Source: Candidatus Poribacteria bacterium (GTDB lineage Bacteria > Poribacteria > WGA-4E > WGA-3G). Taken from it: 64,000 bases of DNA. Below the pieces are notes generated by a model, which did no database searches, was not told the origin of the DNA, and saw only the letters and a list, made by a program, of their open reading frames with translations. The DNA lies in NCBI GenBank assembly GCA_965197475.1, contig CBDANF010000003.1:2144001-2208000 (forward strand), read 5' to 3'. A program made the position numbers and the translations under genes. Below are positions 1,250 through 54,372 of this stretch, in pieces (within the stretch, counting starts at the first letter, position 1; the number at the start of each line of letters is the position of its first letter).

Positions 1250-3679
1250 TTACTGCTTAACAATCGTAAGGGGAAGGCTTGTTGATCTGCCTGCACCGTC
1301 AATACATGTCAATTCATGCTTTCCAGCAATAGGGGTTAAGAAAGTCGGTTCTACTGCTTGCCCCTTAAAAACAAGTTCACCGTTTAGAAACCAGAAGATC
1401 TCCTGCGTATCACCCGAAACTGAAGCAGCTAACCGAATTTTTTGATACTCTGGCGGAATGTTAGCACGGATATGATAGACAGCATCACGTGCTGGAGACA
1501 GAATAACTGGATGAGTGCCAGCAAGAGGACGTGTGCAATCAGCATTATGTGCGGGAAGCCGGGACACACCAAATCCGTTTGCATCCAACCAAGTCGCAAC
1601 CGCTGCAGGCCACACCGCAATCGTCTCTTCACGGAAATGTTTTCCGGGTCTGCACGATGAACAGAGGCGTTCGCCTGTAGTTATATCTACCTGTATGCTT
1701 TTATGTATGTGACACTCACGGACGGAAGAAACGCCTGGGATATATACATCGGATATTGAAGTTAGGCAATGAGGTGACAGTGGTAGACCTGTGAGGGCAC
1801 AAACCAGACGCGTTTTGAGGTTGACTGGTTCGGTAAACCACTGATGCGCCTTTTCTCCAGATAGTGTTGTGAAAAGAGCGAAAAGAATAGGTGCTGCGGC
1901 TTCAGAACCGCTAAGAATAGGGACTCCAGTTCCGTTGAAATTGCCGATCCATACGCCGATAGTTAGTTCTGGTGAATAACCGATACTCCACGCATCTCTG
2001 TGCCCATAGGAGGTTCCCGTTTTCCACGCCACCTTCGGCATAGTGCCAGTTACTTCAAAAGATTCAGGAAAATCGGGGCGTTTTAAGGTCGTCAACATTT
2101 CCGTGATGACCCAACTGGTCTCAGGTCGCAGTAAGCGCGATACAGATGCAGAAACAGATGCCCCACCTCTTTTCTCATTACCTGCAGCTCTGTCTACTAT
2201 TAATTGATACGGTGCAAACTCACCCATATTTGCTAAACCTGCGTAAAGATTTGTCAGTTCAAGTAGATTAACACCACATCCGCCAAGCACAAGCGAAAGT
2301 CCATATTCCACTTGATCGGAGAATGTGGAGATTCCCGCTTGTTGTAGGAGACCGTAAAGTTGACTTTCTCCCAATTTGGCATAGAGATTGACGGCGGGAA
2401 CATTAAGGGAGCGCGCTAATGCCTCTTGTGCTGTAATATATCCTGTGAATTTTCCATCGAAATTCACAGGGGAATAGCCGACATAATCAACGGGCACATC
2501 AAATAAAAGTGTTCGTGGGGTAATTATTCCTTTATCAATTGCAAGTGCATAGATAAAAGGCTTGAGCGTTGATCCGGGGGATCGTAAAGCAAGTGTGCCG
2601 TTGACTTGTCCTTCAGATGCTTTATCGAAAAAATCATGTGAGCCGACCATGGCAAGCACTTCACGGGTTTTAGTATCTATAATGACAACTGATCCTGTTG
2701 AGACACCTTGTCCTTGTAGTGGTCGCAAGTGTTCACGTAAAATACGTTCAGCAGTGTCTTGGTAGTGTTGATCAATTGTTGTGTGTATCCGCTGATTACC
2801 GACATGTTGAGATACTTGAGAAGGTTGTTCGTTGACAAGGAGGCGGGACAGATGCGGAGCCTTGAAAGGAAGCGAGTATCGTTTTTTCGGGATTGGCTCT
2901 TGTCCTGCTTCTTGCAGCTGTTGTTTAGATATTTTCCCAGCGTCTTTCATGCGTTGCAATACCTTTTTTCTTGCCTTGCGCGCACGTTCAGGAAAGCGAT
3001 CAGGACGCAATCGTTCCGGTGAATTTGGTATTGCTGCTAAAAGTGCGGCTTCTCCAAGGCTAAGCGCACTTTGCGGTTTATTAAAATAGAGACGTGCAGC
3101 TGCACCTGAACCGACAATGTTCCCGCCATAAGGTAACATATTGAAGTAAAACGTTAAAATCTCCGATTTCGTGTAGGTCAGTTCCAGTTGAAATGCTCGA
3201 AACATTTCGAAAAGTTTATTCGGCAACGTGCGATTCTTCGGTTCCATAAGCCGGGCAAGCTGCATTGTAATTGTAGAACCACCCCGTACGATTTTACCTG
3301 CTTTAAGGTTATCAAATGTTGCCCCTGCAAGTGAAACAGGGTTGATGCCCCAATGATGGTAAAACCACCGATCTTCATAAGTTAACATAGCAGTTTGGAA
3401 TCGAGGGGAGATGGCATCAAGAGAGGTTTCAGGCAATCGCCACATGTCATCGGGTGCTGTGAAAGCACGGAGCCATTCACCGTTTCTATCAAGCACTACA
3501 GTTGATGGTGGAAGTTGGAGTTTTTCCGTAGACAGTGGAAAACACCAGTTGGCGAGTGCGAAAAAGCAGAACGGAATTAGAGGTAATATAAAAATATACC
3601 ATCTTTTCCGTACGATTTTTGCAAATTTGAGATATGGGAGCGTTCGCAGATGGGAAAGACTAAGTTTCGTCAGTTTCAT
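1250..3679 (-). CDS. pbpC: Penicillin-binding protein 1C
   Basis: Transglycosylase motifs EDRWFYHHWG and GGSTITMQLAR; transpeptidase SxxK (STLK), SLN and KTG; BiPBP-type C-terminus; downstream of A2M. Start uncertain (ORF is open to 3763). Confidence 0.95.
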   Translation of the reverse strand: MKLTKLSLSHLRTLPYLKFAKIVRKRWYIFILPLIPFCFFALANWCFPLSTEKLQLPPSTVVLDRNGEWLRAFTAPDDMWRLPETSLDAISPRFQTAMLTYEDRWFYHHWGINPVSLAGATFDNLKAGKIVRGGSTITMQLARLMEPKNRTLPNKLFEMFRAFQLELTYTKSEILTFYFNMLPYGGNIVGSGAAARLYFNKPQSALSLGEAALLAAIPNSPERLRPDRFPERARKARKKVLQRMKDAGKISKQQLQEAGQEPIPKKRYSLPFKAPHLSRLLVNEQPSQVSQHVGNQRIHTTIDQHYQDTAERILREHLRPLQGQGVSTGSVVIIDTKTREVLAMVGSHDFFDKASEGQVNGTLALRSPGSTLKPFIYALAIDKGIITPRTLLFDVPVDYVGYSPVNFDGKFTGYITAQEALARSLNVPAVNLYAKLGESQLYGLLQQAGISTFSDQVEYGLSLVLGGCGVNLLELTNLYAGLANMGEFAPYQLIVDRAAGNEKRGGASVSASVSRLLRPETSWVITEMLTTLKRPDFPESFEVTGTMPKVAWKTGTSYGHRDAWSIGYSPELTIGVWIGNFNGTGVPILSGSEAAAPILFALFTTLSGEKAHQWFTEPVNLKTRLVCALTGLPLSPHCLTSISDVYIPGVSSVRECHIHKSIQVDITTGERLCSSCRPGKHFREETIAVWPAAVATWLDANGFGVSRLPAHNADCTRPLAGTHPVILSPARDAVYHIRANIPPEYQKIRLAASVSGDTQEIFWFLNGELVFKGQAVEPTFLTPIAGKHELTCIDGAGRSTSLPLTIVKQ

Positions 3680-3784
3680 CGGTAGTGTTATGGGGAAGAG
3701 TAGAGGGAAGAGGAAAACCCTCCTACTCTTCCAGCTTGCCCTATGAGTTTGGGCATAGAACAATATGTATGAATCTAATTACAA

Positions 3785-3920
3785 CAGGACTTACGCAAAT
3801 TGAGTAGAAAAGGCAGAATACGCGTGTGGTATTCTGCATGATATTGGCCTTAAAAAGTCGTTATTTCGGTATTTTAACCCCCTTATCAAGGGGACTTTTG
3901 AACCTATTGCGTAAGTCCTA
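3785..3920. mobile_element. MITE, CAGGACTTACGCAA family, copy 1
   Basis: Inverted ends AGGACTTACGCAA...TTGCGTAAGTCCT, flanked by 5-bp direct repeat TACAA; internal hairpin CCCCTTATCAAGGGG. Confidence 0.85.
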
Positions 3921-3926
3921 TACAAC

Positions 3927-6900
3927 TTACTCAATGACTTTGAGTTTACCGCTACCAGCGACAGAAGATCTCGCTGGATCATACATAGCTTCTGCGGAAA
4001 CAGGCGGTAAGGTAAAGTTTCCGCGGGTCACGGCGCGAAGTGCATAGTGGAATTTCCGTTCCCGTTGACGCGGGAAAGTACCAAAGAAGATCAACCGATC
4101 ATCGCGAATATCAACGTAATCCGGTTTGAAATTCTGCGTTTTCAACCATGGAATTCCTGCACGCGATGCTAACCTGGCATTCTCAATCTCAAAACCTGCT
4201 GGCAACATATCTACAACAACTACATTTTCAAGGTTTGATGTCAGTGCTTTTACAGTAACTTCTGCAATTACCATATCCCCATGTCGAAATTCATTATCAT
4301 AAGGCATTCCATCTTGTTTAAGATAACGTCGGCGCACCTCCAAATCCCGATCATACTCCTCAATAAAGGAATCACGCCGGATTCCGAAGGCTGACCAATA
4401 GTAATAACAACTCCCTTCGCCTTCAATAGCAATTTTCACTTGTGCGCCGTCCCAATCTGTATTCGCTAATCGAACCGAAGGCGTTGTTGAATCAAAATCA
4501 GTAAGATGCGTATCATTTAGGGTAAGTGTGCCGGTGTAGTTGCCATCCATTTTCTTCTTAAGGATTTTGCCGAGCGCGAGAAAGGCGAATGCGTTCTCTT
4601 GAGTCGTGCCCCATCGTTTTCTTTGAGACGCAGCGTCGCTAAGATAGCTCACAAGCATCGGAATTGACGGATGGTTTTCGTTGACCTCAGCGAGTACGTC
4701 AAGGATAATCGCTTGCGAACGCACAGGCGAATCGAAGTTTGTACCTGTCTGGCGGCTCCCTCCATTTTGAGATGAGATAGAAATAGGCAGCATAGAGAGT
4801 GCTGTTTCCAACTCACCACTGAGCGCAAAGGCACCCGCCAATTGAAACTGACTATAGTCCGCGAGACTACTGAGGAGGTTATTTTTAAAGTAGTGCATCA
4901 CGCCTTTTTCTGGTTGTCCTGCTGCTGCTAATACATAGCAGGCATAGACCGCACGCTCAACTTTGTGTCTATTAGATTCATTAACGGACTTTTGGTCGCT
5001 TGATATTTGTTTCGCTTGCTGTCTTAGTCCATCAAGCAATCCGTTGTAGACACGATCAGAGACTTCGTAGCCTGCTTTACGAGCTTCAACCAGAAAGTGA
5101 GAAGCATAAACACTACTCCAGTGATTGATATAACGCCCGCCCGGCCAATACGAAAAATGGTTTTGAGAGGTGAGCATACCTTCAAGTTTAGCGATACCAG
5201 ACGTAATGTAGTAATCAACGCTTTCATCCGAAACGAGTTCAGGATCAACAGTTCGCGCAACATCACTAAAATAGAGCAGTGGAAATACTCGACTTGTTGT
5301 TTGCTCAAGACAACCGTAAGGATAACGAAGTAGGTAACGAATCCCACCGGCAAACTCAATTGCAGGAAACGGAGATACAGTGAGGGTAAAGTCGGAGGAC
5401 TCTGCTATCAAATTGGAAGGCAAGACGAAATCCGCAGCATTTTCCGCGCTGACCACTCCATGCCCTGTCTCAGTTATCGGCGGCGCAGCAGACCGAAGGG
5501 GAAGTTGAACAGACATCTGTGTGCTTTCGTTATTCCCAGAAGCAGACAACGTGAAAATAGCTTTACCGATTGAATCATGAGTAAGCAGATCAAATATAAG
5601 TTGTTCCTCTCTTCCCGCTGCAATCTGGACATGCTTTCGAAGGTGATTTTCTTGAGCCTGCGGTTCTGATTCTGTAGTCCCAGGTAGGAGTCGAACATCA
5701 CCGGTCGCCTTAATTTCTACATCAAATTCTCCATCCTTTCCAGTTCCGTTGTGAACACTAACGGGGAATTGGATGCGATCACCACCTGAAAGGAAGCGTG
5801 GAAATGTCGGTGTTAATACCACCGGTTCCCGAACTTTCGTGAATTTCTCTGCGGAACCGTAGTACGCGTTGGAAAAAGCGACAGCCATTAATCGTATGGT
5901 ACCGTTAAACTGCGGAATGTGGAAACTTGCCGTGCCTCTTCCATAACGATCTGTTTTCAGAATTCCTGACCAGAGCGAGACCGGTTTCACACGCATGACG
6001 CTGGCGGTGTTGAGGCGTTTAGCACGACCACCAAGGTTCGCGGATGCATCACCACCAATGCTGGAATCGCCACGCACAATCTCAATCTCCGGTAAAATTG
6101 CGGAGTAGAGGTCATAGGCGCGTGTTTTCAGCCCACGCTGACGGTAAAAGTAACCGTGGGGATTAGGCACCCGAAAATCGGTTAACTGAAGTATCCCTTC
6201 ATCAACCGCAGCAATGGTAACATGGGAGAACGCGCTTTGTTGCCCACGCACACGGAACTTAACAGTTACATCGCTATTCGGACGAATCTCCTCAGGCGCA
6301 TCCAAATCAATGCTGAGACGATTAGGTTCAGAGTCCAATTTCAGCGGAATGATGCCAAAAGCACGCGCAGGCGCGTGTTCTTCCAACGAATCTGTTGACC
6401 GAATCAAAGTTCCGGAGAGGTATATGTTCGGTTTATAGCTGTACTTGACCGGGATCCTCAAACTCGCTGTATTGCCTTTTAAGTTAACAGTTCGGTAACT
6501 TAAAATCTTTTCCCGCTCTATTGTCAATAACAGTTTGCCGGGGAATGGTGCTTTAATCTGAAGTTTCGCAGTCTGTCCGGGTTGATACGCTGGTTTATCT
6601 AACGTCATCTCAAGCAGGCTCGGATTTTCCATGGACAAAGGAACGGATCCCCAACCGGTAGTTTCCATTTTGAGTTCCGTTTTCGCGCCGGAGGCGGTAT
6701 CTTCCAGATGTACACGATATTCGCCATACTCAGAAGGTGTAAAAGTGAATGTCCCCATCTCTGCTGCTGAAACAAATTGATGCGATTCCAAGGAAGTAAT
6801 TTGTTCATCCGACACATATTCATAACGACCTCGCGAGTTGCGGCGGAGTATAGTGTTCCAATGGACTTTATGAACAGTGAGTACTAAGTCACGTCCGGCT

Positions 6901-9371
6901 ACTGCATTTCCATTTTTGTCCACGGCAATATAGTTAAAAGAAACATTTTGATTAGGTTTAATAACCCCTGAACTTGAACGTTTGATGCCGACATAATGTG
7001 AATACGGATGAATAACAACGCGATATGAAGCCGTTACGGCTCTGCCACCAGGTTCGTTCACTGTTGCTGTTAGTACCCCATTCAACTGAGAAGGTGCTTT
7101 GACAGTGTCCGGCAGCAGGAATTTATAATGCGCTTTACCTTCAGCATCAGTCTTGGTATCTTCTAAAGTAGTCCGTTGTTTCTCAAACGGCATAGTACTC
7201 GAAAAGTGGAATGAACGCCACTTTTCCACTGGAACATACGGTACTGCTTCAAGCATGTAAGACGCTGTTACTTTTCGGTTTACAGCAGGCGGCCCGAAAA
7301 GATTAACAGCAGAAACATCCATTCCGACCTCAACGCCTAAGTCATACTCAGATTTGTCTGCCGTAACAGAGACTTTCATCCGGTCGGGCATAAACTCTTC
7401 CACCTGAAATCGTGAACGACCAATCTCCTTGTCAGCAACGCTCATCTTGGCAACATAACTTCCTGTCTGTGCGTAAGCCGGTAACGGGATTGTTATCTCA
7501 CAACCCCCGCGTCTATCCGTATTTTGACGAAATTCATTTATAACTCTACCATCTGGTGCTAAAATCTGAATGTGGGTTGGAAGCGACGGAGGTGTTGCAT
7601 TTTGCTTTCCACGGACGATTGCAGCCAGTGCTACCTTCTCACCAGGCCGATAAACCCCACGACTCGTGTAGAGAAACGCCTCATAGCCTGCTGTTAAATA
7701 AGCAGAACCGCCAACATTAAAATCTCCAGTGGAAAGTTGATGTCGGTTTAGCTGAATGAAGGATAGGTCATCCCCTTTCTCCACTGTCAGCATAAATGGG
7801 GTAAAACCCTCAGTTTTTTGATCAACTGAGGGAAACTTGACGAAGCCTTCCCAATTTGTTTTTCCAGTCAGTAGCGTTTGGTTGTTATCGCTGACTAACT
7901 TAACTGTGGCTTGTGAAACAGACTTTAAGTTGGTAAGCGAATTGACCCAAACCCATAACTCATCCCCTGCTCTTTTAGTAATGATCCCGAGGTCCGTCAA
8001 CATCACCCATTGTGTCGCACGAGCCCGATAACTCTTTGGGTCTCGAACATTAACTTTAAAAATACCGACATGTTTATCATTCAAGTACTGTCCAAGAGTA
8101 ATATACGTACGGACTTCCTCGTTCAGTTTTGAGGGAATATTAAGTGTTTCGGAATGAATTGGCTTCCCTAAATTATCTGTCCAAGCACTCCAATTTCTTA
8201 GTTTAGACACATAAACAAGGTTGTTGCCGAAGACTTTTTCTATTCGCACTTCAACATTATGTACATTTATCGTTGCCAAACCGAGATTCATATTTTGATT
8301 TCTGGTAAGAAAGAAACCATTGCCCACAAAACGGATTTGCGGAGGCACATCTGGGATTGTAAGTCGGACAGAATGTGACTTCTTTAATACGGAACCGTCG
8401 GCAGCTGTCAACCCTTCCTGAACTGTGACTTCATATTTACTACGTCGCTTGAAATCACCATGGATTTCAATCCCACCGTATCTGGTAATAATCTGAGTAT
8501 CTACCTCTGGTTTGATACGAATATACGGTTGCACCGTGTCAATTGGAATGCGGGAACTAAAACGGAGGGCAATATGAGGTTTTCCAGAGCCTTCTTGGAC
8601 ATTGGCATACGTAACACCGAGTGTGTCTCTGCCGGTTAAGGTCATTGATTTAACGTTCGCCTCTTTCAACCCGATCTGCCCACCTGTACATTTAAACCTT
8701 TTCTCAATTCGCACCTTGAGATTTTGGTCTCCGAGCAGACGCGGAATCTCTTCAGTTTCTAATTTAATCTCCCTAGCAATTCCATTTTGTGGTTGAAGCG
8801 TATAAGGTATATCAACATCCTCTTGAAGTCGGATAGACAGGTTTGCGCGTAAATCAGCAATATTGACCGGATAATTAAATGTTAACTTCCCAACAACCTT
8901 TGCGTGTGTTTTAGTGTATTTGAATTCAAGGCTTTTCTTTTGTACGCGGAAGGGTTCAGTTGAAAAAGTGAATTTTCGATCACCGGTGATGACAAACCCA
9001 AGGGGGCTCTGGTGTAATTTGGGGGAAAGTTCCACAGTATAACTTGCGGAGGGGGCTAAGGGGCTTTCTAAAAAGAAGCGGATTGTATCGCGCGCTATCC
9101 AACGGGCGACTCCCTTAACAGTGGGGGTAAATTGAATCGCACGATCCGGTAATTCAGTGTTAATCACTGAATTATCAATTATCGGTTCCGAAAACGTAAA
9201 CGTAAAATCAACCCATTGCGGAACTTTTTCGCCTTTCGGCGTAAAGGATTTAACGGTGACGCGCGGCTTTGCATCCGATATCAAACTATGGATATAGAGT
9301 GACCCGATAATCAAAATGAGCAAAGAAAGAAGGGCAACAACACCTGTTAAAAGTTTTTTTGATTCCATCAT
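3927..9371 (-). CDS. Bacterial alpha-2-macroglobulin (YfhM-like)
   Basis: 1814 aa; motifs YRPGE, FQVEEFMPDR, AAVDEGILQLT; thioester motif YPYGCLEQ; WGTTQENA; C-terminal AEAMYDP; adjacent to pbpC. Confidence 0.95.
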   Translation of the reverse strand: MMESKKLLTGVVALLSLLILIIGSLYIHSLISDAKPRVTVKSFTPKGEKVPQWVDFTFTFSEPIIDNSVINTELPDRAIQFTPTVKGVARWIARDTIRFFLESPLAPSASYTVELSPKLHQSPLGFVITGDRKFTFSTEPFRVQKKSLEFKYTKTHAKVVGKLTFNYPVNIADLRANLSIRLQEDVDIPYTLQPQNGIAREIKLETEEIPRLLGDQNLKVRIEKRFKCTGGQIGLKEANVKSMTLTGRDTLGVTYANVQEGSGKPHIALRFSSRIPIDTVQPYIRIKPEVDTQIITRYGGIEIHGDFKRRSKYEVTVQEGLTAADGSVLKKSHSVRLTIPDVPPQIRFVGNGFFLTRNQNMNLGLATINVHNVEVRIEKVFGNNLVYVSKLRNWSAWTDNLGKPIHSETLNIPSKLNEEVRTYITLGQYLNDKHVGIFKVNVRDPKSYRARATQWVMLTDLGIITKRAGDELWVWVNSLTNLKSVSQATVKLVSDNNQTLLTGKTNWEGFVKFPSVDQKTEGFTPFMLTVEKGDDLSFIQLNRHQLSTGDFNVGGSAYLTAGYEAFLYTSRGVYRPGEKVALAAIVRGKQNATPPSLPTHIQILAPDGRVINEFRQNTDRRGGCEITIPLPAYAQTGSYVAKMSVADKEIGRSRFQVEEFMPDRMKVSVTADKSEYDLGVEVGMDVSAVNLFGPPAVNRKVTASYMLEAVPYVPVEKWRSFHFSSTMPFEKQRTTLEDTKTDAEGKAHYKFLLPDTVKAPSQLNGVLTATVNEPGGRAVTASYRVVIHPYSHYVGIKRSSSGVIKPNQNVSFNYIAVDKNGNAVAGRDLVLTVHKVHWNTILRRNSRGRYEYVSDEQITSLESHQFVSAAEMGTFTFTPSEYGEYRVHLEDTASGAKTELKMETTGWGSVPLSMENPSLLEMTLDKPAYQPGQTAKLQIKAPFPGKLLLTIEREKILSYRTVNLKGNTASLRIPVKYSYKPNIYLSGTLIRSTDSLEEHAPARAFGIIPLKLDSEPNRLSIDLDAPEEIRPNSDVTVKFRVRGQQSAFSHVTIAAVDEGILQLTDFRVPNPHGYFYRQRGLKTRAYDLYSAILPEIEIVRGDSSIGGDASANLGGRAKRLNTASVMRVKPVSLWSGILKTDRYGRGTASFHIPQFNGTIRLMAVAFSNAYYGSAEKFTKVREPVVLTPTFPRFLSGGDRIQFPVSVHNGTGKDGEFDVEIKATGDVRLLPGTTESEPQAQENHLRKHVQIAAGREEQLIFDLLTHDSIGKAIFTLSASGNNESTQMSVQLPLRSAAPPITETGHGVVSAENAADFVLPSNLIAESSDFTLTVSPFPAIEFAGGIRYLLRYPYGCLEQTTSRVFPLLYFSDVARTVDPELVSDESVDYYITSGIAKLEGMLTSQNHFSYWPGGRYINHWSSVYASHFLVEARKAGYEVSDRVYNGLLDGLRQQAKQISSDQKSVNESNRHKVERAVYACYVLAAAGQPEKGVMHYFKNNLLSSLADYSQFQLAGAFALSGELETALSMLPISISSQNGGSRQTGTNFDSPVRSQAIILDVLAEVNENHPSIPMLVSYLSDAASQRKRWGTTQENAFAFLALGKILKKKMDGNYTGTLTLNDTHLTDFDSTTPSVRLANTDWDGAQVKIAIEGEGSCYYYWSAFGIRRDSFIEEYDRDLEVRRRYLKQDGMPYDNEFRHGDMVIAEVTVKALTSNLENVVVVDMLPAGFEIENARLASRAGIPWLKTQNFKPDYVDIRDDRLIFFGTFPRQRERKFHYALRAVTRGNFTLPPVSAEAMYDPARSSVAGSGKLKVIE

Positions 9372-9439
9372 AAAATGTCTCCTAAAGTTGGCATGTTATT
9401 CAAATCTCTGAAGGTCATTTTTTCATTCGTAAGGTATGT

Positions 9440-9456
9440 AGCAATTTTCGTGCCAA
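9440..9456 (-). promoter_or_regulatory. Putative sigma54 (-24/-12) promoter of the A2M-pbpC operon
   Basis: Minus strand TTGGCACGAAAATTGCT matches TGGCAC-N5-TTGC, about 70 bp upstream of the start. Confidence 0.7.
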
Positions 9457-9724
9457 AATTTGCGTTTTCTAACGGTATCCCGGAATCGTTTAGGTTTTGT
9501 GTTTTGCCCTCCTCTATCTACAACACGCAACAAACCACGTGAGGACACTCAAATCAATGGGTTATAGAATGTGTATCTTGGTTCCTGACGTTATCTGATC
9601 TTCAGGTTTATCCTTATAAACAACCAAAAATAATATGTTCTGTTATTAACTTATGCTCCAAACTCAAAATGGGATCTTAAGCAAGGAACAAGGGTAAACA
9701 TTTTACCATAGACATTATAATGAA

Positions 9725-10723
9725 TTAAATAGAAGGAGTTTCATAACGCCAGGGTCTGAAGTTTAGGCGAAAATTGTGTAAACCACAACAGGTTTCCATA
9801 ACTAAATCACAAAACCCTTTCTTCCAATTCCTGAGTTTATCTTTGACAATGAACTAAATCACAAAACCCTTTCTTCCAATTCCTGAGTTTATCTTTGACA
9901 ATGCGGCATCTTTTGACACCACTAATCGCATGTTCAACGCGTATGCGTATAGACGCTATCTTTCTATTGTTTTCTTTTTCTTCATTCGTCCGTTCTCTAC
10001 CTCTCGGTTTTTTCTTCGGTTGAATGATGTTTATATCCGGGAGAACGAAACCCTGAAAACCGGTATCTTGGGACAATGTGCTACCCTGTGGCACACAATA
10101 GCCCACCATATCGGCTATGTGTTTGTCATGATATCTCCCTTCAAAGAAGGTGTCAATAGGACAACTTTGCAGGTCTCATTGATAATCAAATTATTTTTCA
10201 CTGTATGACATTTCTTTTTACCACTATAATAACCCTTTTGAGTTTGTGGGTCTTTGGGGCATCGTATCGGGCGTTCGGTGCTATCATGAAAAAAATGTTC
10301 TCCTTCTTGATTTTGAGTTGATACTTTTGATGGAGCACATATAGGGGCGGGGTCTGTTTCCCGAGATGGCAACTCTCCAAGTTCTGCTAATGCTTTGTTC
10401 AATATCGATAAAAGCAAGTGAATCCATCTATTAGCAAGAGGTTGAGACATGCCAAAGAGCGCACCGAATAGCACTTGTTTCGGTGCTTCACGAAGGTAAA
10501 TCAGTATAAATAGCAACATATCTTCAGGTGTATCAAAACGACTATTTTTATACGGTTTATATCTCCGTTTTTTGCGCGGTTTTCCTGCAAGGGTATGTGT
10601 TTGAACATACTCTAAAAAACATTTAGTAAAATAAGGTGATAGTTCAGTCCAATCTTCTAAGGTATATCCGGTGAGGGACAGGAGCGTATCAGGTTTGTCC
10701 CTTAGTTCTTGAAAACTTATCAT
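9725..10723 (-). pseudogene. Transposase (HTH_Tnp_4 + DDE_Tnp_4 type), frameshifted
   Basis: Motifs DSTERPI, YYSGKKKCHTVKN, DTGFQG, RIRVEHAISGVKR; -1 shift near 10145; 52-bp duplication near the 3' end; original tail CDLVMETCCGLHNFR...PSI* ends at 9725. Confidence 0.85.
9800..9903. repeat. Perfect 52-bp tandem duplication in the transposase
   Basis: 9800-9851 is identical to 9852-9903. Confidence 0.95.
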
Positions 10724-10854
10724 GAGTTAGCCTCCTATTGTCCGATTGTAATAAGTATAATAGAGACTAACCAAACGGACAACTAATTAGTTATAATGTC
10801 TCATGTGTAAAAATAAACACACTTATTTTAAAATAGCAAGGAATCCAAATACCT

Positions 10855-10977
10855 CAGGACTTACGCAAATTGGGGAGAAAAAGGAAGTATTGGACTTAAA
10901 AAGTCGTTATTTCGGTGTTTTTAACCCCCTAAATCCCCCTTATCAAGGGGATTTTTGAACCTATTGCGTAAGTCCTG
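10855..10977. mobile_element. MITE, CAGGACTTACGCAA family, copy 2
   Basis: CAGGACTTACGCAA...TTGCGTAAGTCCTG; 5-bp direct repeat TACCT; interior similar to copy 1. Confidence 0.85.
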
Positions 10978-10980
10978 TAC

Positions 10981-12198
10981 CTAAAACCAGAATCGCGACA
11001 TCAAAATAAGCTGATTCGTCCCTTCAAGTTGTCTTAACATACTTTTGCTGCTGATATCCTCATCAGGTTTTCGGTCAGCGTTAGGCAGATTTGCCCAATA
11101 GAACAGTGAAATCGCGCCGTTTTCCATAAAATTATATTGCGCGATAAATGTCAACCGCTTACCAGCATCACCTAAAACAGTTCTGTCCGGATCAAACAAA
11201 CCGTAACGGCCTGCTACAGTTAATTGCGGAAGAACACGGTATTTTGCTCCGAAGTAGTATCCCTTAGAATCAACGGCATCGGATGCGAAAGAGGCGACCT
11301 CATCGCTATTTCCAAAGTTGAATTCTCCTTCTAAACTCAAACCGGCGTAAGAGGCAGTTACAAACGCACCGATAAGACGTTCCCACTCTTCACCGGGTTT
11401 TTCAAATATGCAGGACACTCCTGCACGAATCGGACCAAGTTGTCCGCCGAGAGTACCGAGTGCGCCCTTGGCTGTTGCATTGCCAGCGTTGAAAAACGCT
11501 GCGTTGTAGAATGCTTTTCCGAAACTACCACCGAGTTCCAGTCCAACATCTCGTTTATTTGAACCGAGGCCGTAGCCTTCCCGGACAAGGATATTATGAT
11601 CCTTCTGTTTGATGCCGAAGGGTAGCCGAAATTGTCCCACTTTGAAGTAAAGATGTTTTGGAATAGCATCTACTGTGGCGAAAGCATTAAGTGTCGTGCC
11701 AACGTTGTTGGAAAGGGTTAAGCGAACCCGTTCTGAGGCTTGCGCGTTGAACGTCACCTCAGCTTGCATCAGAAGAAATCTGTCAACAGATGAATGGCAC
11801 GAGTTACATCCAGCTACTGTGCCCTCTTCTTCGTCTACATGTGTAGTTTTGATAAAAGCTGTCTGTAGATCAAGTGAGGTTATAAGTTGTTTAACAACCT
11901 CCTTTGCTTCTTCAGTGACAGCATCCATATCGAAATCTTCAGGAAACTCAAAATAGTTCTCTTCAAAAATTTCACCGATCCGATTGCGAGGACCACCACC
12001 TGCTGGGTCAATGTGGCAGAAATTACAGTCTTTGTCTAATTCAGCCGCAAACTCTGGTCGTGCTTCAGCGAAATCTGCCCAAAAAAGAGCTAACGAGAAA
12101 TTTGTTATCAGGGCAAATACCAACAATGCACGGAAACATTTTCGCAGCATAGTCCTGTCGTGAAAAGGTTTCATAAACCTACTGTGATATATCTTCAA
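10981..12198 (-). CDS. Outer-membrane porin-like beta-barrel with two CxxCH haem-c motifs
   Basis: Signal peptide; CNFCH and CNSCH; porin-like motifs KVGQFRLPFG and RDVGLELGG; amphipathic strands; C-terminal aromatic FWF. True start may be at an internal Met. Confidence 0.75.
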   Translation of the reverse strand: MKIYHSRFMKPFHDRTMLRKCFRALLVFALITNFSLALFWADFAEARPEFAAELDKDCNFCHIDPAGGGPRNRIGEIFEENYFEFPEDFDMDAVTEEAKEVVKQLITSLDLQTAFIKTTHVDEEEGTVAGCNSCHSSVDRFLLMQAEVTFNAQASERVRLTLSNNVGTTLNAFATVDAIPKHLYFKVGQFRLPFGIKQKDHNILVREGYGLGSNKRDVGLELGGSFGKAFYNAAFFNAGNATAKGALGTLGGQLGPIRAGVSCIFEKPGEEWERLIGAFVTASYAGLSLEGEFNFGNSDEVASFASDAVDSKGYYFGAKYRVLPQLTVAGRYGLFDPDRTVLGDAGKRLTFIAQYNFMENGAISLFYWANLPNADRKPDEDISSKSMLRQLEGTNQLILMSRFWF

Positions 12199-12293
12199 AA
12201 GCGTACTCCTTTTCTATTGTGTAAAATGCTAGGTTTTACTACGTTCTATCACTATGTGTCAATTTATTTATAAGTTAGGTTGCAGCGGATTAT

Positions 12294-12337
12294 TGTCTGA
12301 ACCAGGATTCACATGATTATCGGATTTACAGGATTAT
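12294..12337. repeat. Half copy of the TGTCTGAACCAGGATT repeat element
   Basis: Same end and GGATT sub-repeats as the element at 54173-54347. Confidence 0.7.
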
Positions 12338-12339
12338 AG

Positions 12340-12806
12340 AAGTCGCTCTTACAGAAGCCCCGATGACCGATACTGAGGTGCATAGACTGATTTGAGGCAG
12401 CTATGTAGAAACTGTAAGATCATAGGTTGTTACCCTTTGCAACGATCCCTTGGAAGCCTGCATTAGTCGGTCCTGTGTATCTTTCAATATTAACCCACGC
12501 CATGACGGTAACATCTTTGTCAACAGTGAGTATCTCATGATGGGAAACTTCAACCCAATCGCTGTCTCCGTTCAGCTTCACTGCCATGCCATATTTTCCA
12601 TTAACTAATTTAGGATCCCCTTTCAGTTCTCCATGGTTTTCATACTGTGAATGGTCAATCACTTTACCGTCACCATTAAGTTCATCAAAAGAGATATAAA
12701 GAACGAGTGAGTCGTCAGCTGCATTTAATCCGTAGGCAGAAGATACTACAAAGGTTAGCAACACGAAAAACGTGACAAACTTTACAAAGAGATAGTTAAT
12801 TGCCAT
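12340..12806 (-). pseudogene. LamG-like jellyroll protein, nonsense-mutated and truncated
   Basis: Signal peptide, SLVLYISFDE, GKYGMAVKLNG, VTVMAWVN; in-frame TGA at 12420 followed by SYSFY; coding lost at the repeat near 12337. Confidence 0.75.
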
Positions 12807-12839
12807 ACAATACCTTCTCCAAAAATAGTTGAATAAATA

Positions 12840-13500
12840 GGGTCGTCCTAAGGTTGTAACAACTAAACATAACTTAGAAAGGACAATCACCCATGCCTGA
12901 AATTATAGCACTGTTTACTGTTTTTATACCACATTTATCCGCAACGACGACCCGGCAGTTATCCGCTCTGTCATCGCACTGCTTGCGATGACAGAGCGGA
13001 TAACAATGTTAAATATATCTCGCTGGACTGGACAAGGAGGTAGCTACCGCACCGGACAACGCTTTTTCAACACTGTTATCCCTTGGGCTACGATCTGCTG
13101 TATGTTTTTTCGCACACATCTGCTTGATCGTGAAAGTGACTATATCCTCACAAGGACAAAACAATCGTGCCAAAATCGGGCGACTTTACCTATGGTTTAT
13201 CTCGTTTCTTTTCCTCATTGTATGGAAAACGATCCCCGCTTGGTGTTTTAGCCGTGTCCTTAGTGAGCGTCAATCAGCGACGCTCCTATCCAATAGTTAT
13301 GGAGCAAATCTTGCGTGACGACTCATCATTAAATCCGGGCGTTTCAACACAGGAACAGCGCGATGACACTGAGACAGCAGCAAAACTGAAACGCGGATGT
13401 CCAAAGGAAGCCGAAACCGGAACAAGGATGATATGGTCTCACCGATACGCTGAAACAACTTCAAACGATGGTTAAGACGATGCTATTGCAGATTCGCGAC
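12840..13500 (+). pseudogene. Degraded DDE transposase remnant (IS4/IS701-like)
   Basis: Frameshifted fragments from the ATG at 12893: MPEIIALF...TRQLS, MTERITMLNISRWTGQGGSYRTGQRFF, TYGLSRFFSSLYGK, KRGCPK; boundaries approximate. Confidence 0.7.
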
Positions 13501-13539
13501 TTGATCCCACTCCATTAATATTTATATTTCACCAAGATA

Positions 13540-14133
13540 TCAATCAAGTTCAGTAATAACATAGTCCATATCTTCAGCTTGAGCGTGACAACTCCAACAT
13601 ATCCCGTCAGAGGCGATAACTTTAAATTCAGCATCTGACGCATTTCGAGTATATTCAATGAATTCCCAATCATTATGGTCTGGATCACTGCCAGCTACCT
13701 TCCGCATAATCGCTATGAGTCCCACGTAGTCTTTATTTGGTCGATATGCTTCTTTTACGACGATGCTTCCATCCGGATATGGGAATTGCTGCTCGCCGTC
13801 AGGTGCGATGGTCACCCGTGTTTGGTTAACGTAAACGTTCTTTGTCCCTCTGTGTGGATCACTGCCTGCAACAGGTGGAATCGGTTCGGCATTTAATTTA
13901 AGCCACTTCTCATAACCTGCTACATCTTCTGGTAGCCCTGGCAGTGCGACAGCGGGTTCTTCAGTTTCCTGGTCTGTTTCTTCTTTAGTTGTTTCCTGAA
14001 CAAGTTCGTCTAACTGTTGTTCTTCTACACAAGACGTGAACATCACGCTGGACATTAGCACAATGGCAATCCCAAGGTAGACATTCAAAAAGTGGCGGAT
14101 GTGTTTTTTGCTTCGCATTATAAATCTCCTCAT
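13540..14133 (-). CDS. Cytochrome P460 family lipoprotein
   Basis: Lipobox FTSC; PYPDGSIVVKE; MRK...NDWEFIEY; C-terminal CWSCH followed by DYV. Confidence 0.85.
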   Translation of the reverse strand: MRRFIMRSKKHIRHFLNVYLGIAIVLMSSVMFTSCVEEQQLDELVQETTKEETDQETEEPAVALPGLPEDVAGYEKWLKLNAEPIPPVAGSDPHRGTKNVYVNQTRVTIAPDGEQQFPYPDGSIVVKEAYRPNKDYVGLIAIMRKVAGSDPDHNDWEFIEYTRNASDAEFKVIASDGICWSCHAQAEDMDYVITELD

Positions 14134-14406
14134 TTTAACATGCCTTTAGTATATAACAAAAAGGCAATCATAGCAATAATTAATTTATACCATACGTTTC
14201 GTTTATGTTTCAAAATTGAACGCTCAGATTACGAATTGTTTTACATAACCTTGACGTAGCAGAAATTGAAAATTGGGACGGAATTCATTTTTATTTGTCA
14301 TTCCAGTTCTGTTAATGTATCATATCATAATGGAGAATAGAGATTTAAACTGAACACTTCTATATGTCTAAAAGAATAAGTTGGTTTTCGAATAAAGGAG
14401 AAATGG

Positions 14407-15402
14407 ATGCTCAGAAACCTGTTTAAAGGTGGTGATAAAAACCGCACTGAACCGGAAGCTACGGATCAAAAAGAGAATTGGTTCAATCGCCTCAAATCCA
14501 GTTTAGCGAAGACTCGTAACAGTTTTATCTCTCAACTGTCAGGATTGCTTCGGGTTGGTAGAAAAATTGACGAAGAACTGATGGAGGAGATCGAAGAGAT
14601 TTTAATCCAAGCAGACGTGGGAGTTGATACGACTCTGACGCTGATGGATAACGTGAGAGAGACTGTGAAGGAAAGAGGATTAGGCGATTCTTCTGAATTG
14701 GGAACAGTCATAAAAGAGGAAATACTGCATCTTCTGGGAGAAGATGTTCCCTTGAAGTTTGAAGGTGAACCACCTTATACGATTTTAGTTCTCGGTGTGA
14801 ACGGTGCTGGAAAAACGACAACCATCGGCAAACTCGCAAGCCGTTTTAACGCTGATGGCAACCGTGTTCTCGTTGCTGCAGGCGATACATTTCGTGCCGC
14901 GGCGGAGGACCAATTGGCGATTTGGTGCAAACGCGCGCGGGCAGAACTAATTCGCGGCGGGGAACGTGCGGAACCCGCTTCAGTAGTTTTTGATGCTATT
15001 CATGCGGCAAAAAACCGAGAAGCAGACGTTCTGATTGTGGACACAGCTGGCAGACTCCATACCAAAAAACCTTTGATGGATGAATTATCAAAAATCGGAC
15101 GTGTGATGGGACAAGCACATTTAGGCGCGCCTCACGAGGTGCTACTTGTCATTGATGGCACAGTAGGACAGAATGCACTAATGCAGGCTAAAATTTTTAA
15201 CGAGGCAGTGCCGATTTCTGGTGTAGTAGTCACGAAGCTGGACGGCACAGCGAAAGGTGGGATAGTAATAGCGGTAAAAGCCGAACTCAATGCTCCCGTC
15301 AAACTGATCGGCATCGGTGAGAAACTTGACGATTTACGGGATTTCGCGGGGGCAGATTTCGTTGAAGCACTCTTTGCATCAGATGAGACTGAAGGGACGT
15401 AA
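14407..15402 (+). CDS. ftsY: Signal recognition particle receptor FtsY
   Basis: GVNGAGKTTT, DTFRAAA, DTAGRLH, TKLDGTAKGG, GIGEKLDDL. Confidence 0.98.
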   Translation: MLRNLFKGGDKNRTEPEATDQKENWFNRLKSSLAKTRNSFISQLSGLLRVGRKIDEELMEEIEEILIQADVGVDTTLTLMDNVRETVKERGLGDSSELGTVIKEEILHLLGEDVPLKFEGEPPYTILVLGVNGAGKTTTIGKLASRFNADGNRVLVAAGDTFRAAAEDQLAIWCKRARAELIRGGERAEPASVVFDAIHAAKNREADVLIVDTAGRLHTKKPLMDELSKIGRVMGQAHLGAPHEVLLVIDGTVGQNALMQAKIFNEAVPISGVVVTKLDGTAKGGIVIAVKAELNAPVKLIGIGEKLDDLRDFAGADFVEALFASDETEGT

Positions 15403-21726: not shown

Positions 21727-23949
21727 TTATTTAGACGGTACATTCCAAAGGAAAATAGTTCCGTCTTGTCTATAATCGTGGCCGCTTATGCTTGCGAGTG
21801 TTTTGCCATCAGGTGCAAACGCCAATGTATGGATAAAGTTTTTATGTCCATCATAGGTTGCAAGAAGGCGGCGGGTAGCAAATTCCCATAGATGAATTTT
21901 ACCGCCCGTATCCCCGCTGGCGAGAATAGTACCATCCGATGAAAATGCTAACTTGCAGACTGCATGTTGGTGTCCACTAATAGTTTCAATAAGGTTTTGG
22001 GTGGCAACATCCCACAAATGTATTTTCTTGTTTCCATTTCCAGTTGCGAGCGTTTTTCCATCAGGTGTGAATGCTAACGCATAAACATTAAAGTTGCGCA
22101 AGTGGAAACGTTCTAACAATCCACCCATTAATCCCTTAGAAATTTTAAGTGCTGCAAGTTGTTCGCCGGTGTTCATATTCCATAAATATATGCGATTTCC
22201 CATACTATAAGCAAGCATTTTGCCATTGAATGTTGATGTCATCCAATACCTATCAATCTTCGTAAAGGTATTCAGATTTTTGGCTTTGAGCGTGTCCCAT
22301 ATTTCTGTTCCATTATTTGTTTGAATAACCAGTTTTTCACTATTTGGTGCAAAAACACCTACGATGTCCCCCCTAAGTGTTGTGCCATCATTAAATGAAT
22401 CAGAAAAACCTCCGTTTAATGTGTCTGGGATGGTGTAGGCGTTTTCCTGTATTCCTGAGGTAATATCCCACACTTCAATATTGCCTCTACTCTCACTGAT
22501 AAGCGTTTTGTTGTCCTTCGCGAATGTTAATGCACGGATATAATTGTCATCTGTGTTGATCGTAATCCATTTGTTGTGTTCATTTGCATTCCAGAGTTGG
22601 ATGTTTCCCGTAATGTCACCGCTTGCGAGCACTTTTCCATCATGTGAGAACACTAACGCCGTGAGTGGTTTTGTATAGCCTGAAGTGAGAGTCAGCAGTG
22701 GTTTGTTGGTACGTGTGTGCCACACATTTACAGTGCCGTTCCCGTTTGCTGTGGCAAGGGTTGCTCCCTCTTGTGATAACACGAAACGTTCAGGGAAAGG
22801 TTTAAACTCATCTAAAACGGGACTGAGTTTTGCTATTTGACGGTGGGTGGCAATGTCCAATAGTGTATAACTATCTTTGGCAATTAGAACGAGGGTTTTT
22901 CCGTCGCCTGAAAATCTTACGGTTTTCGCATCGGGGAACGTAGCGATTTCACTGCGGGCAGGAACGTCCCATATAGCGCAACCATCATACCCTGTTATGG
23001 CGAGGATTTTTCCACCCTTTGAAAACCTTACGTCTTGGACACGGCCCCCTGGAAGTGCCGCGAGTTGTTCACCTATGTCAACATCCCATATTTCAATTGG
23101 TCCTTGGGTATTTCTGCTGCCATTTCTCAAGGGGATCCTGTAGGATATTCTACTCACAAGCGTTTTTCCGTCCGGTGCAAACTCCAATCCCTGATGCCAT
23201 TTTATAGGTTGTTTTTCAAAAAGCGTGTAGCTTTGGCTGTCGTGTCCCAGCGGATATTGGATTGGAAAAGGTATCCTATCATCCATTGTGCGTGGTGTAA
23301 GTGTTATTATTTCTCTGCCGGTTTGTCCATTTTTGATGCTGATTGTGCCATCCTTATTTCCGATAGCAAAGGTAACAACGCCTATGCGATCAACAAAGGC
23401 AGCTAATGCACGAGTCCATACTCTACCTTTGATTCTGATTTTGGAAGCCTTTGGATTGAATGTATTTAGTAATTTTCCAGTGGAGGTATCCCAAAGCGTA
23501 ACTATCCGTTGCCAATTGACTCCTACAAGCGTTTTTCCATCGGGTAAGAATTTCAGAGAAAAAAGTGTGCCTTTGGGAATAGCAAATGTCTGCAAGTTTT
23601 TACCGGTTTTAGCGTCCCAAAGCCGAACGGTTTTATCATCCGCGCTGCTGGCAAGCATCTTTCCATCCGGTGAGAATGCTACATGTCTAACGGCATCCGT
23701 ATGCCCTGAAAGGAAAGCAGTTTCGTCGCCTGTGTTGACATCATAAAGCCATACACCGATAGAGCTTGCTATTGCCAACTGATTGCCATCAGGTGATAGC
23801 TGCATATCATTTAAGATGCCTTTACCGAGACGTGCTTTAGCACCTTCAGGTAAACTGAATTGCGTATAGTCCTGGGCGAAAGAATTCAGTGGATATAGGG
23901 TAAAAAAGATAAATAGTATTAAGAAAATCGAAAATAGTTTAGTCTTCAT
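21727..23949 (-). CDS. Secreted WD40-repeat protein
   Basis: Signal peptide, YTQFSLPEGAKARLGKG, many AFSPDG...LWD repeats. Confidence 0.92.
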   Translation of the reverse strand: MKTKLFSIFLILFIFFTLYPLNSFAQDYTQFSLPEGAKARLGKGILNDMQLSPDGNQLAIASSIGVWLYDVNTGDETAFLSGHTDAVRHVAFSPDGKMLASSADDKTVRLWDAKTGKNLQTFAIPKGTLFSLKFLPDGKTLVGVNWQRIVTLWDTSTGKLLNTFNPKASKIRIKGRVWTRALAAFVDRIGVVTFAIGNKDGTISIKNGQTGREIITLTPRTMDDRIPFPIQYPLGHDSQSYTLFEKQPIKWHQGLEFAPDGKTLVSRISYRIPLRNGSRNTQGPIEIWDVDIGEQLAALPGGRVQDVRFSKGGKILAITGYDGCAIWDVPARSEIATFPDAKTVRFSGDGKTLVLIAKDSYTLLDIATHRQIAKLSPVLDEFKPFPERFVLSQEGATLATANGNGTVNVWHTRTNKPLLTLTSGYTKPLTALVFSHDGKVLASGDITGNIQLWNANEHNKWITINTDDNYIRALTFAKDNKTLISESRGNIEVWDITSGIQENAYTIPDTLNGGFSDSFNDGTTLRGDIVGVFAPNSEKLVIQTNNGTEIWDTLKAKNLNTFTKIDRYWMTSTFNGKMLAYSMGNRIYLWNMNTGEQLAALKISKGLMGGLLERFHLRNFNVYALAFTPDGKTLATGNGNKKIHLWDVATQNLIETISGHQHAVCKLAFSSDGTILASGDTGGKIHLWEFATRRLLATYDGHKNFIHTLAFAPDGKTLASISGHDYRQDGTIFLWNVPSK

Positions 23950-54349: not shown

Positions 54350-54372
54350 CGCGATTCGGAGATCGCTCCTAC
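54350..54372 (-). repeat. GTAG-type REP overlapping a stop codon
   Basis: Minus strand GTAGGAGCGATCTCCGAATCGCG; its TAG is the stop of the giant ORF. Confidence 0.7.

Follow-up and report, generated by a model that had tools for sequence, protein, structure and literature searches.

The closest described relatives of the protein reported here are the Cyc2 proteins, fusions of a monohaem cytochrome with a 16-strand barrel that oxidise Fe(II) (PMC8406198, PMC13692758; all papers are cited here for the parts of their text that were available). As described in PMC8406198 (Keffer et al. 2021), a Cyc2 carries a signal peptide, a single CXXCH and a 16-strand porin modelled on OprO/OprP. A second type of system, to which MtrAB, MtoAB, PioAB and Geobacter Pcc belong, moves electrons across the outer membrane via haems held in a barrel (PMC8406198), the task that we propose here; it is built of separate proteins, with a barrel of 26 strands and 8-12 haems. 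In a 64,000-nucleotide (nt) stretch of a Candidatus Poribacteria genome (assembly GCA_965197475.1, contig CBDANF010000003.1, positions 2,144,001 to 2,208,000; hereafter the window), we analysed a gene (10981..12198, minus strand) whose product is a cytochrome-porin with two CxxCH haem attachment motifs. Unlike the MtrB/PioB type, with its separate 26-strand porin and decahaem partner, it is a single fused chain with 16 predicted strands and two haem sites, the second of them on the first loop of the predicted barrel. An earlier annotation of the sequence (the first-pass annotation) did not recognise this architecture as described. Consistently, no dihaem fused cytochrome-porin was found in a literature search that left subscription journals and supplements outside and included the available parts of PMC8406198, PMC13741234, PMC10654088, PMC7029218, PMC5566968 and PMC13692758.

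The open reading frame encodes 405 amino acids (aa) from a TTG at 12198, or 389 aa from an ATG at 12150. An AGGAG lies 6 nt upstream of the TTG. Of 74 related loci, 73 have an in-frame start preceded by a Shine-Dalgarno sequence (a TTG in 64 and an ATG in 9), whereas several database entries start at the downstream ATG. Residues are numbered here on the 389-aa form, P0001; 16 has to be added for the TTG start. All features of the cytochrome-porin are on the minus strand. The precursor begins with a signal peptide, read by eye from the sequence (12061..12198), with a long basic n-region, a hydrophobic core and an AEA cleavage-type site; its N-terminal parts show poor conservation, in contrast to the conserved AEARPEF. 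The haem-1 module RPEFAAELDKD-CNFCH-IDPAGGGPRN and a conserved acidic linker (residues 61-90) follow, together spanning residues 31-90 (11881..12060). Mean conservation of this region is 0.91-0.94 among 201 Poribacteria-clade sequences, and its haem c attachment motif CNFCH (CNFCHIDPAGGGPRN, C42-H46, 12013..12027) is invariant family-wide. After the linker come LDLQTAFIKT, a loop carrying the second haem c attachment motif CNSCH (C115-H119, 11794..11808), RFLLMQAEVTF and a glycine- and aromatic-rich body ending RFWF.

Both motifs were checked by hand against the DNA. Four of the 5 cysteines of the mature protein lie inside them, and among 200,000 shuffles of the mature sequence at least one CxxCH arose in 0.076% and two in none. 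The two-CxxCH architecture of the product is confirmed: the signal peptide, CNFCH, acidic linker and porin-like body ending FWF reported by the first-pass annotation are all present in the translation, which agrees with family homology on a cytochrome-porin fusion with two motifs. Its placement of CNSCH between the first two predicted strands was borne out by the family alignment, where the motif falls between the first two conserved strand-like blocks.

We then looked at the conservation of the second motif. A genome scan returned 180 relatives, and the locus counts given here cover 80 of them, all in Poribacteria assemblies (77 so named and 3 entered as 'uncultured bacterium'). Both motifs were found in 79/80 loci; in the other, L075, a contig end cuts the gene before the first motif. 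They are separated by 73 aa in 77 loci and by 77 aa in 2. A word-indexed protein search gave 343 matches, and the 120 listed, all at least 77% identical, each carry two CxxCH; the five organism-named proteins among those listed are all Candidatus Poribacteria. C115, C118 and H119 were present in 201/201 pooled sequences (query, loci and database proteins, sources that overlap), while the two residues between the cysteines are variable: N, T, S, A, Q or V at the first inner site and S or A at the second. Each of the three invariant positions is encoded by both synonymous codons among the 80 coding sequences (TGT/TGC 59/21 at C115 and 26/54 at C118, CAT/CAC 40/40 at H119). Of seven distant forms, 29-45% identical, six keep the motif at this position, as do 27 of the 28 sequences of that alignment. 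A profile built from six distant dihaem forms matched 107 proteins; 60 of the 61 new ones have two motifs 72-77 aa apart, and the 4 organism-named matches are all Poribacteria. Conservation of both motifs in homologues, which the first-pass annotation had set as a check on its proposal, therefore holds not only for 79/80 loci and the 120 close proteins listed but also for relatives down to about 30% identity.

A histidine, His104 (11839..11841), lies 11 residues before C115 and is found in 196/201 clade sequences and 75/80 coding sequences. It is a candidate for the distal (sixth) ligand of haem 2. These patterns bear on the possibility that the second CxxCH is not loaded with haem and serves instead as a metal-binding or disulfide element stabilising a surface loop. 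Disulfide formation and metal binding are both possible for a CxxC motif, and the literature search found no precedent for a haem c on a surface loop. Yet the histidine is as invariant as both cysteines while the middle residues vary, which is the constraint pattern of haem c, and a disulfide would need no histidine. The upstream histidine in 196/201 sequences argues the same way, as do the CxxCH or CxxxCH motifs that the family has added elsewhere (see below). We consider an unloaded second motif quite improbable, and both sites are predicted to be haem-loaded.

The search for a parent family gave few named matches. In Pfam, the query had no match above cut-off, the best being Porin_4 (E 0.0017, 18.6 bits against a cut-off of 27), together with a sub-threshold MtrC-domain match (E 0.26). 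NCBIfam likewise gave none above cut-off and only a weak c-type cytochrome match, and none of 113 family members matched a specific NCBIfam model. The first-pass annotation had suggested a search against hidden Markov models of OprO/P; this was not productive, since the query has no Porin_O_P match and only 5/113 members match it at E<0.01, compared with 19/113 for Porin_4. A sequence search of the PDB returned only an N-terminal haem-motif match (6qvm) and no significant barrel match, Porin O being at E 0.39-0.71. An Atlas lookup of the homologue P0004 gave unnamed porin and cytochrome clusters only and no structure, and tblastn of P0001 and P0149 against plasmids gave no match.

By contrast with these named models, an exhaustive HMMER search against cluster representatives recovered 371 proteins at E<=1e-3. 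Among the 118 representatives listed of at least 300 aa, a single CxxCH (at about residue 25-75) is present in 108, and two are present in the other 10. Their consensus is a signal peptide, AxAxPxFAARxGxxCxxCHVNPxGGGxRN, a linker and conserved strand-like blocks, with C42, C45, H46, G51, R55 and G172 invariant in 113 aligned members. A profile of 85 monohaem members matched proteins labelled 'hypothetical' or 'Porin', from Ignavibacteria, Bacteroidota, candidate division LCP-89 and Phycisphaeraceae (8 rows organism-named). Since 108 of the 118 listed have one CxxCH and neither a specific family model nor a solved barrel structure matches significantly, the parent, as judged by these searches, is a large family, as yet unnamed, of monohaem cytochrome-porin fusions. 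The query shares with it CxxCH-x-[ND]-P-x-GGG-x-R, the M128 and H185 positions and the strand blocks. It differs in its second haem site and in a first loop (L1) of 23 aa, whereas the median L1 length of 86 monohaem rows is 13.5 aa.

When a tree was built without the L1 columns, 27 dihaem rows and P0132 separated from 85 monohaem rows (Shimodaira-Hasegawa-like approximate likelihood ratio test, SH-aLRT, 100). P0132 has lost the whole L1 insert and the motif though it is nested in the dihaem clade, where it groups with P0123 and P0124 (support 95); it appears to have returned naturally to the monohaem state. Alignment of the dihaem and monohaem profiles with hhalign was colinear over 361 columns (probability 100, E 3e-61), and the only gap of the monohaem profile in the N-terminal half fell exactly over GTVAGCNSC of the second motif. 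As judged by the tree and the profile alignment, the second motif has a single origin, and one gain followed by one loss is the simplest reading. Extra motifs also occur at another position. Six representatives (P0147, P0194, P0241 and P0256 among them, with P0218 and P0233) carry an additional CxxCH (4 cases) or CxxxCH (2 cases) about 25 residues before the canonical site, and these branches fall outside the L1 dihaem clade. Such N-terminal motifs had not figured in the first-pass annotation. On these alignments, the family has gained haem sites at least twice, at different positions, as expected of an electron-transfer scaffold.

How close is this protein to Cyc2? With Acidithiobacillus ferrooxidans Cyc2, Mariprofundus Cyc2PV-1, Ghiorsea Cyc2TAG1_1 and Leptospirillum Cyt572, it shares the single chain, the signal peptide, the N-terminal CxxCH, a predicted 16-strand barrel and an AxPxFA-type motif before the haem site. 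Cyc2TAG1_1 also has 389 aa, with 16 strands in an AlphaFold 3 model and a low-spin haem with two axial ligands (PMC13692758). The published signature was examined on the main-text consensus of PMC8406198, which gives AXPXFAR[Q/K][T/Y] upstream of the haem site, PXL four residues downstream and a FeGenie minimum of 365 aa. A signal peptide (leader ending AEA, read by eye) followed by a CXXCH (CNFCH, residues 42-46) was found, and the length of 389 or 405 aa exceeds the minimum. The 16-strand barrel corresponds here to a hand-drawn model with 12/16 adjacent pairs coevolving and to porin Pfam matches below cut-off. However, there are two conserved CxxCH instead of one, the upstream motif reads ARPEFAAEL, and CNFCH is followed by IDPAGGGPRN, without PXL. 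The strict pattern, screened as PXFAR[Q/K][T/Y], occurred in 0/119 sequences (the query and 118 representatives), where the family reads PxFAARxG before the site and CH-V-N-P-x-G-G-G-x-R-N after it. Because this signature is lacking, we describe the query as a Cyc2-like fusion in architecture, without filing it as Cyc2. The likeness to Cyc2 raised in the first-pass annotation thus stands for fused architecture and size and fails for the motif signature. Resemblance to OprO/OprP goes no further than the weak Porin_O_P signal in 5/113 members and the use of the same porins to model Cyc2 barrels (PMC8406198); OprO/OprP have no haem module, and the similarity is below any curated threshold.

The same evidence bears on function. 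The protein could be a Cyc2-type Fe(II) oxidase, in which dissolved Fe2+ would enter the pore and be oxidised at haem 1, as has been proposed for Cyc2, and the loop haem would be an accessory with a tuning, protective or iron-handling role, dispensable as a relay step. The signal peptide, N-terminal CxxCH and roughly 390-aa porin-like barrel fit the description of Cyc2, the family AxPxFAARxGxxCxxCH resembles AXPXFAR[Q/K][T/Y], and monohaem relatives evidently work with one haem. In addition, a FeGenie table in PMC12482716 lists cyc2 for a Poribacteria genome, a hit that may or may not be this gene. Against this, the strict Cyc2 motif is found in 0/119 sequences and PXL is absent. The neighbouring gene encodes a P460-type lipoprotein (see below), unlike the small periplasmic cytochromes discussed for Cyc2 pathways, and retention of the second motif phylum-wide without exception argues for an essential role. 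We regard an Fe(II) oxidase with an accessory loop haem as unlikely.

The position of the second haem depends on the topology of the barrel. Residues 91-389 (10984..11880), which end in RFWF (RFWF or HFWF in 80/80 loci), are predicted to form a 16-strand beta-barrel, as judged by the asymmetry of loops and turns, coevolution and the weak Porin_4 match. It is an established feature of outer-membrane barrels that the loops of one side are long and variable, whereas on the opposite side the strands are joined by tight turns. In the query, the odd connections L1-L8 measure 23, 4, 25, 7, 6, 14, 9 and 22 aa (sum 110), and the even connections T1-T7 only 3, 4, 3, 1, 1, 2 and 3 aa (sum 17). Among 113 family members, the mean standard deviation of length was 4.3 for odd and 0.37 for even connections. 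In such barrels the side with tight turns faces the periplasm, as do both termini (PMC13692758).

Mean-field coupling analysis of 437 sequences (effective number of sequences, Meff, 175) gave antiparallel pairing scores of 0.40-1.35 for adjacent strands, compared with 0.39 +/- 0.15 (maximum 0.93) for 104 non-adjacent pairs. Twelve of the 16 adjacent pairs exceeded the non-adjacent mean by more than 2 standard deviations. Strand 1 (residues 91-100, 11851..11880), predicted from the 16-strand model and coevolution, scored 0.97 with strand 16 and 0.78 with strand 2, which supports a closed barrel in which residues 91-100 would be a true strand. Since the barrel would be closed and its C-terminus periplasmic, the connection between strands 1 and 2 would lie outside. 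This connection is L1 (residues 101-123, 11782..11850), which carries His104 and the second motif, and its length, its variability and the gap in the monohaem profile are also those of an extracellular loop in this model. The first-pass annotation had put one haem on a periplasmic plug and the other on surface loop 1; the second part of this is in line with our hand-drawn model, where loop and turn asymmetry and strand coevolution place the second motif on the side opposite the termini. As for the first haem, the couplings G53-T145 (rank 5), D48-K170 (rank 7) and P49-H185 (rank 57 of 62,481) give a weak hint that the haem-1 module may pack inside the barrel. AlphaFold 3 models of Cyc2 place the haem similarly, within the barrel (PMC13741234). 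A further loop, L3 (residues 175-199, 11554..11628), has a family-wide PFG...DH motif and a clade conservation of 0.96; its H185 is found in all dihaem rows (100%) and in 83% of the monohaem ones, and L3 is a candidate constriction loop.

Several other approaches to the fold were set aside. A first amphipathicity scan was too crude to define strands. Coevolution was rejected as a guide to the packing of L1, its couplings being mixed. M128, which lies on the hydrophobic face of strand 2 by its polarity pattern, was not retained with H185 as a proven haem-ligand pair, the rank-8 coupling between them coming from one divergent subfamily that changes both.

Alternatively, both haems could be periplasmic or luminal, either because strand 1 is no membrane strand or because L1 folds deep into the pore. 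The barrel would in that case anchor a dihaem cytochrome facing the periplasm, which might serve hydroxylamine or nitric oxide chemistry of the P460-type neighbour. Haem attachment happens in the periplasm, and the couplings of L1 include periplasmic turns (S117-A138, S121-E343). This arrangement is at odds with the coevolution of strands 1-16 and 1-2, above the non-adjacent background, and with the length and variability of L1, which behaves like the other odd connections while the even ones are 1-4 aa and nearly constant.

The neighbour (13540..14133, minus strand) encodes a P460-fold lipoprotein with one CxxCH (CWSCH, 13585-13599; PF16694, E 2.1e-13, 51.2 bits, cut-off 27). A gene of this type lies directly upstream of the cytochrome-porin gene, on the same strand, in 74/80 loci; this conserved partner was missed by the first-pass annotation. 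Between the P460-type stop and the Shine-Dalgarno-preceded start of the cytochrome-porin, 25 loci have 10-22 nt and another 32 have 47-126 nt. Owing to this short spacing the pair looks like an operon. Within 8 kb in the 80 loci, the cytochrome-porin and the P460-type protein are the only conserved CxxCH protein families, and no multihaem gene was found. No description of such a gene pair in Poribacteria was found in the literature search, within the limits given above, including in the available parts of papers that name both Poribacteria and Cyc2.

In 75/75 P460-type sequences, the lipobox Cys35, H94, K127 and C179/C182/H183 are present. The invariant lipobox cysteine is followed by V, A or T and then by an acidic tether, and the CWSCH at residues 179-183 is the invariant C-terminal CxxCH characteristic of P460. 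The closest solved relatives are cytochromes c'-beta (E 5e-7), true P460s being at E 0.003-0.07. Invariant K127 aligns with the Phe altered in the Phe61Val entry 7zqz, and invariant H94 with the Phe altered in the Phe32Val entry. Table 2 of PMC11928373 equates Phe61 of Methylococcus capsulatus (M. capsulatus) with the position of the cross-linking lysine (Lys70 of NeP460) and Phe32 with the capping residue. By sequence alignment, K127 therefore occupies the cross-link position. The distal carboxylate of P460 (Glu96 / Asp102, equivalent to Gly82 of McCP-beta) is absent, an alanine (Ala141) being invariant there in the alignment. An Ala131 form of P460 is reported to be cross-linked yet inactive on hydroxylamine (PMC11928373), and Ala141 accordingly makes the partner resemble such a cross-linked, inactive P460. 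The partner thus shares with cytochromes P460 and c'-beta the P460 domain, the C-terminal CxxCH and the cross-link-position lysine, and differs from them in its lipoprotein signal, acidic tether, His at the capping position, Ala at the distal carboxylate and pairing with a cytochrome-porin. It is predicted from these residues to be a cross-link-capable P460-type haem lipoprotein of outer-membrane type.

For the proposal that both haems are periplasmic or luminal and serve this neighbour, the presence of K127 at the cross-link lysine position (PMC11928373, Table 2) is favourable, and PMC10415592 speculates, in its available part, on a link between P460 and extracellular electron release in Nitrosomonas communis. 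The alanine at the proton-relay carboxylate, as in P460 inactive on hydroxylamine, is not. With the topological evidence above, we consider this arrangement rather improbable.

The reading that we favour, and hold as a tentative one that may well be right, is that a single chain would relay electrons across the outer membrane through two haems, on behalf of the tethered P460-type protein. What has been observed is the architecture, with both motifs conserved and the second of single origin, and the operon-like pairing with a P460-type gene. The proposal built on them runs as follows. One chain would combine a short N-terminal c-type haem module with a 16-strand porin-like barrel in the outer membrane. 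In the Poribacteria lineage, L1 would have been lengthened and a second CxxCH acquired, usually with a His 11 residues upstream as a possible sixth ligand. Haem would be attached at both sites in the periplasm, ahead of barrel insertion. The place of haem 1 would then be at the periplasmic half of the barrel or within it, and that of haem 2 at the outer mouth, at a distance presumably short enough for transfer, and electrons would hop across the outer membrane within a single polypeptide. The periplasmic partner would most likely be the upstream P460-fold lipoprotein, and electrons would be exchanged, in one direction or the other, with some external substrate. A bolder version has a minor chance of being correct: barrel, inner haem, surface-loop haem and tethered P460 would make up a two-gene trans-outer-membrane wire, the smallest known, by which sponge symbionts could couple hydroxylamine, nitric oxide or other periplasmic redox chemistry directly to external electron donors or acceptors.

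A number of observations weigh against the two-haem relay. The 16-strand model was drawn by eye and tested afterwards, on coevolution data that are thin (Meff 175), and the strand pairs 6-7, 8-9, 10-11 and 14-15 did not rise above background. L1 couples to surface loops and periplasmic turns in about equal measure, and the covariation of M128, H185 and P49 is carried by one divergent subfamily, so that it is no evidence of contact. His104 is missing in 5/80 coding sequences, and most of the distant dihaem forms lack it as well. The literature search found no precedent for a covalent haem on an extracellular barrel loop; such a protein would require the barrel-assembly machinery to let a haem-bearing loop pass and so to export it. 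The partner gene is not adjacent in 5 loci with upstream sequence (L015, L035, L044, L049 and L050). Moreover, the cofactors of known P460 proteins are five-coordinate, bind ligands and have a low potential (PMC11928373), traits that are unusual for a simple electron carrier. Finally, no other respiratory gene was found in the 64-kb window.

The locus has a conserved order: MarR, a sigma factor, FtsY (opposite strand), the P460-type gene, the cytochrome-porin gene, alpha-2-macroglobulin and PBP1C. Among the 80 loci, the P460-type gene is found in 74, alpha-2-macroglobulin in 76, PBP1C in 73 and FtsY in 56. In the five loci without an adjacent P460-type gene (L015, L035, L044, L049 and L050), large mobile- or restriction-like open reading frames or a masked stretch lie upstream instead. 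Alpha-2-macroglobulin (1814 aa) and the PBP1C-type penicillin-binding protein occupy 1250-9371 of the window, after the cytochrome-porin gene. We take alpha-2-macroglobulin and PBP1C to be a known gene pairing. This pair is probably unrelated to the cytochromes.

In 17 loci (L011, L016, L018, L019, L020, L023, L025, L027, L029, L030, L032, L034, L053, L056, L058, L067 and L071), the first 45 nt downstream of the P460-type stop hold a conserved, GC-rich hairpin of 10 bp, GCTGGCGAGG...CCTCGCCAGC, whose start is 8 nt from the stop. This hairpin lacks a U-run and shows a compensatory change in one pair, and may be an intercistronic stability or processing element. In this genome only, the two genes are separated by an insertion of about 1.3 kb (12199..13539, no strand assigned). 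It contains DDE_5 transposase fragments (12988..13475, plus strand), a weak LamG-like fragment (12420..12890) and a perfect 21-nt hairpin (12958-13004).

On the other side, between the cytochrome-porin and alpha-2-macroglobulin genes, lies a decayed insertion sequence (9710-10801) with 18-nt inverted repeats. Its DDE_Tnp_4 transposase is split (10115..10723 and 9837..10109), and it holds an exact 52-nt tandem duplication (9800-9903). Just 3' of the cytochrome-porin stop is a perfect 14-nt inverted repeat (10855-10868 / 10964-10977), and a terminator-like site (10936-10950) is found on the strand opposite to the gene. Scans for promoters and terminators gave results at shuffle level, and composition around the cytochrome-porin gene is unremarkable. 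Rfam gave no match at 9000-15000, and no transfer RNA (tRNA) genes were found in the window. Elsewhere, the window encodes many eukaryote-like repeat proteins, with WD40 propellers, TPR, LRR/lamin-tail and a 2963-aa LRR/Ig giant (2-1111, 21727-23949, 51799-54141, 54369-63260 and several TPR open reading frames).

Fused cytochrome-porins have been thought to be monohaem, which forces their dissolved substrate, Fe2+, to enter the pore. If the two-haem relay is true, a second haem at the outer mouth would lift this limit, and a small protein could exchange electrons with partners unable to enter a pore. A covalent haem on a surface loop would also be a first for a barrel and raises the question of how such a barrel is assembled. 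Because the protein is small and Cyc2 relatives have already been produced in Escherichia coli (PMC13692758), the hypothesis is directly testable. The cytochrome-porin is present in all the genomes examined of a widespread, uncultured, sponge-associated phylum, along with a P460-type protein, and would, if the proposal holds, point to an unrecognised redox capability of these symbionts.

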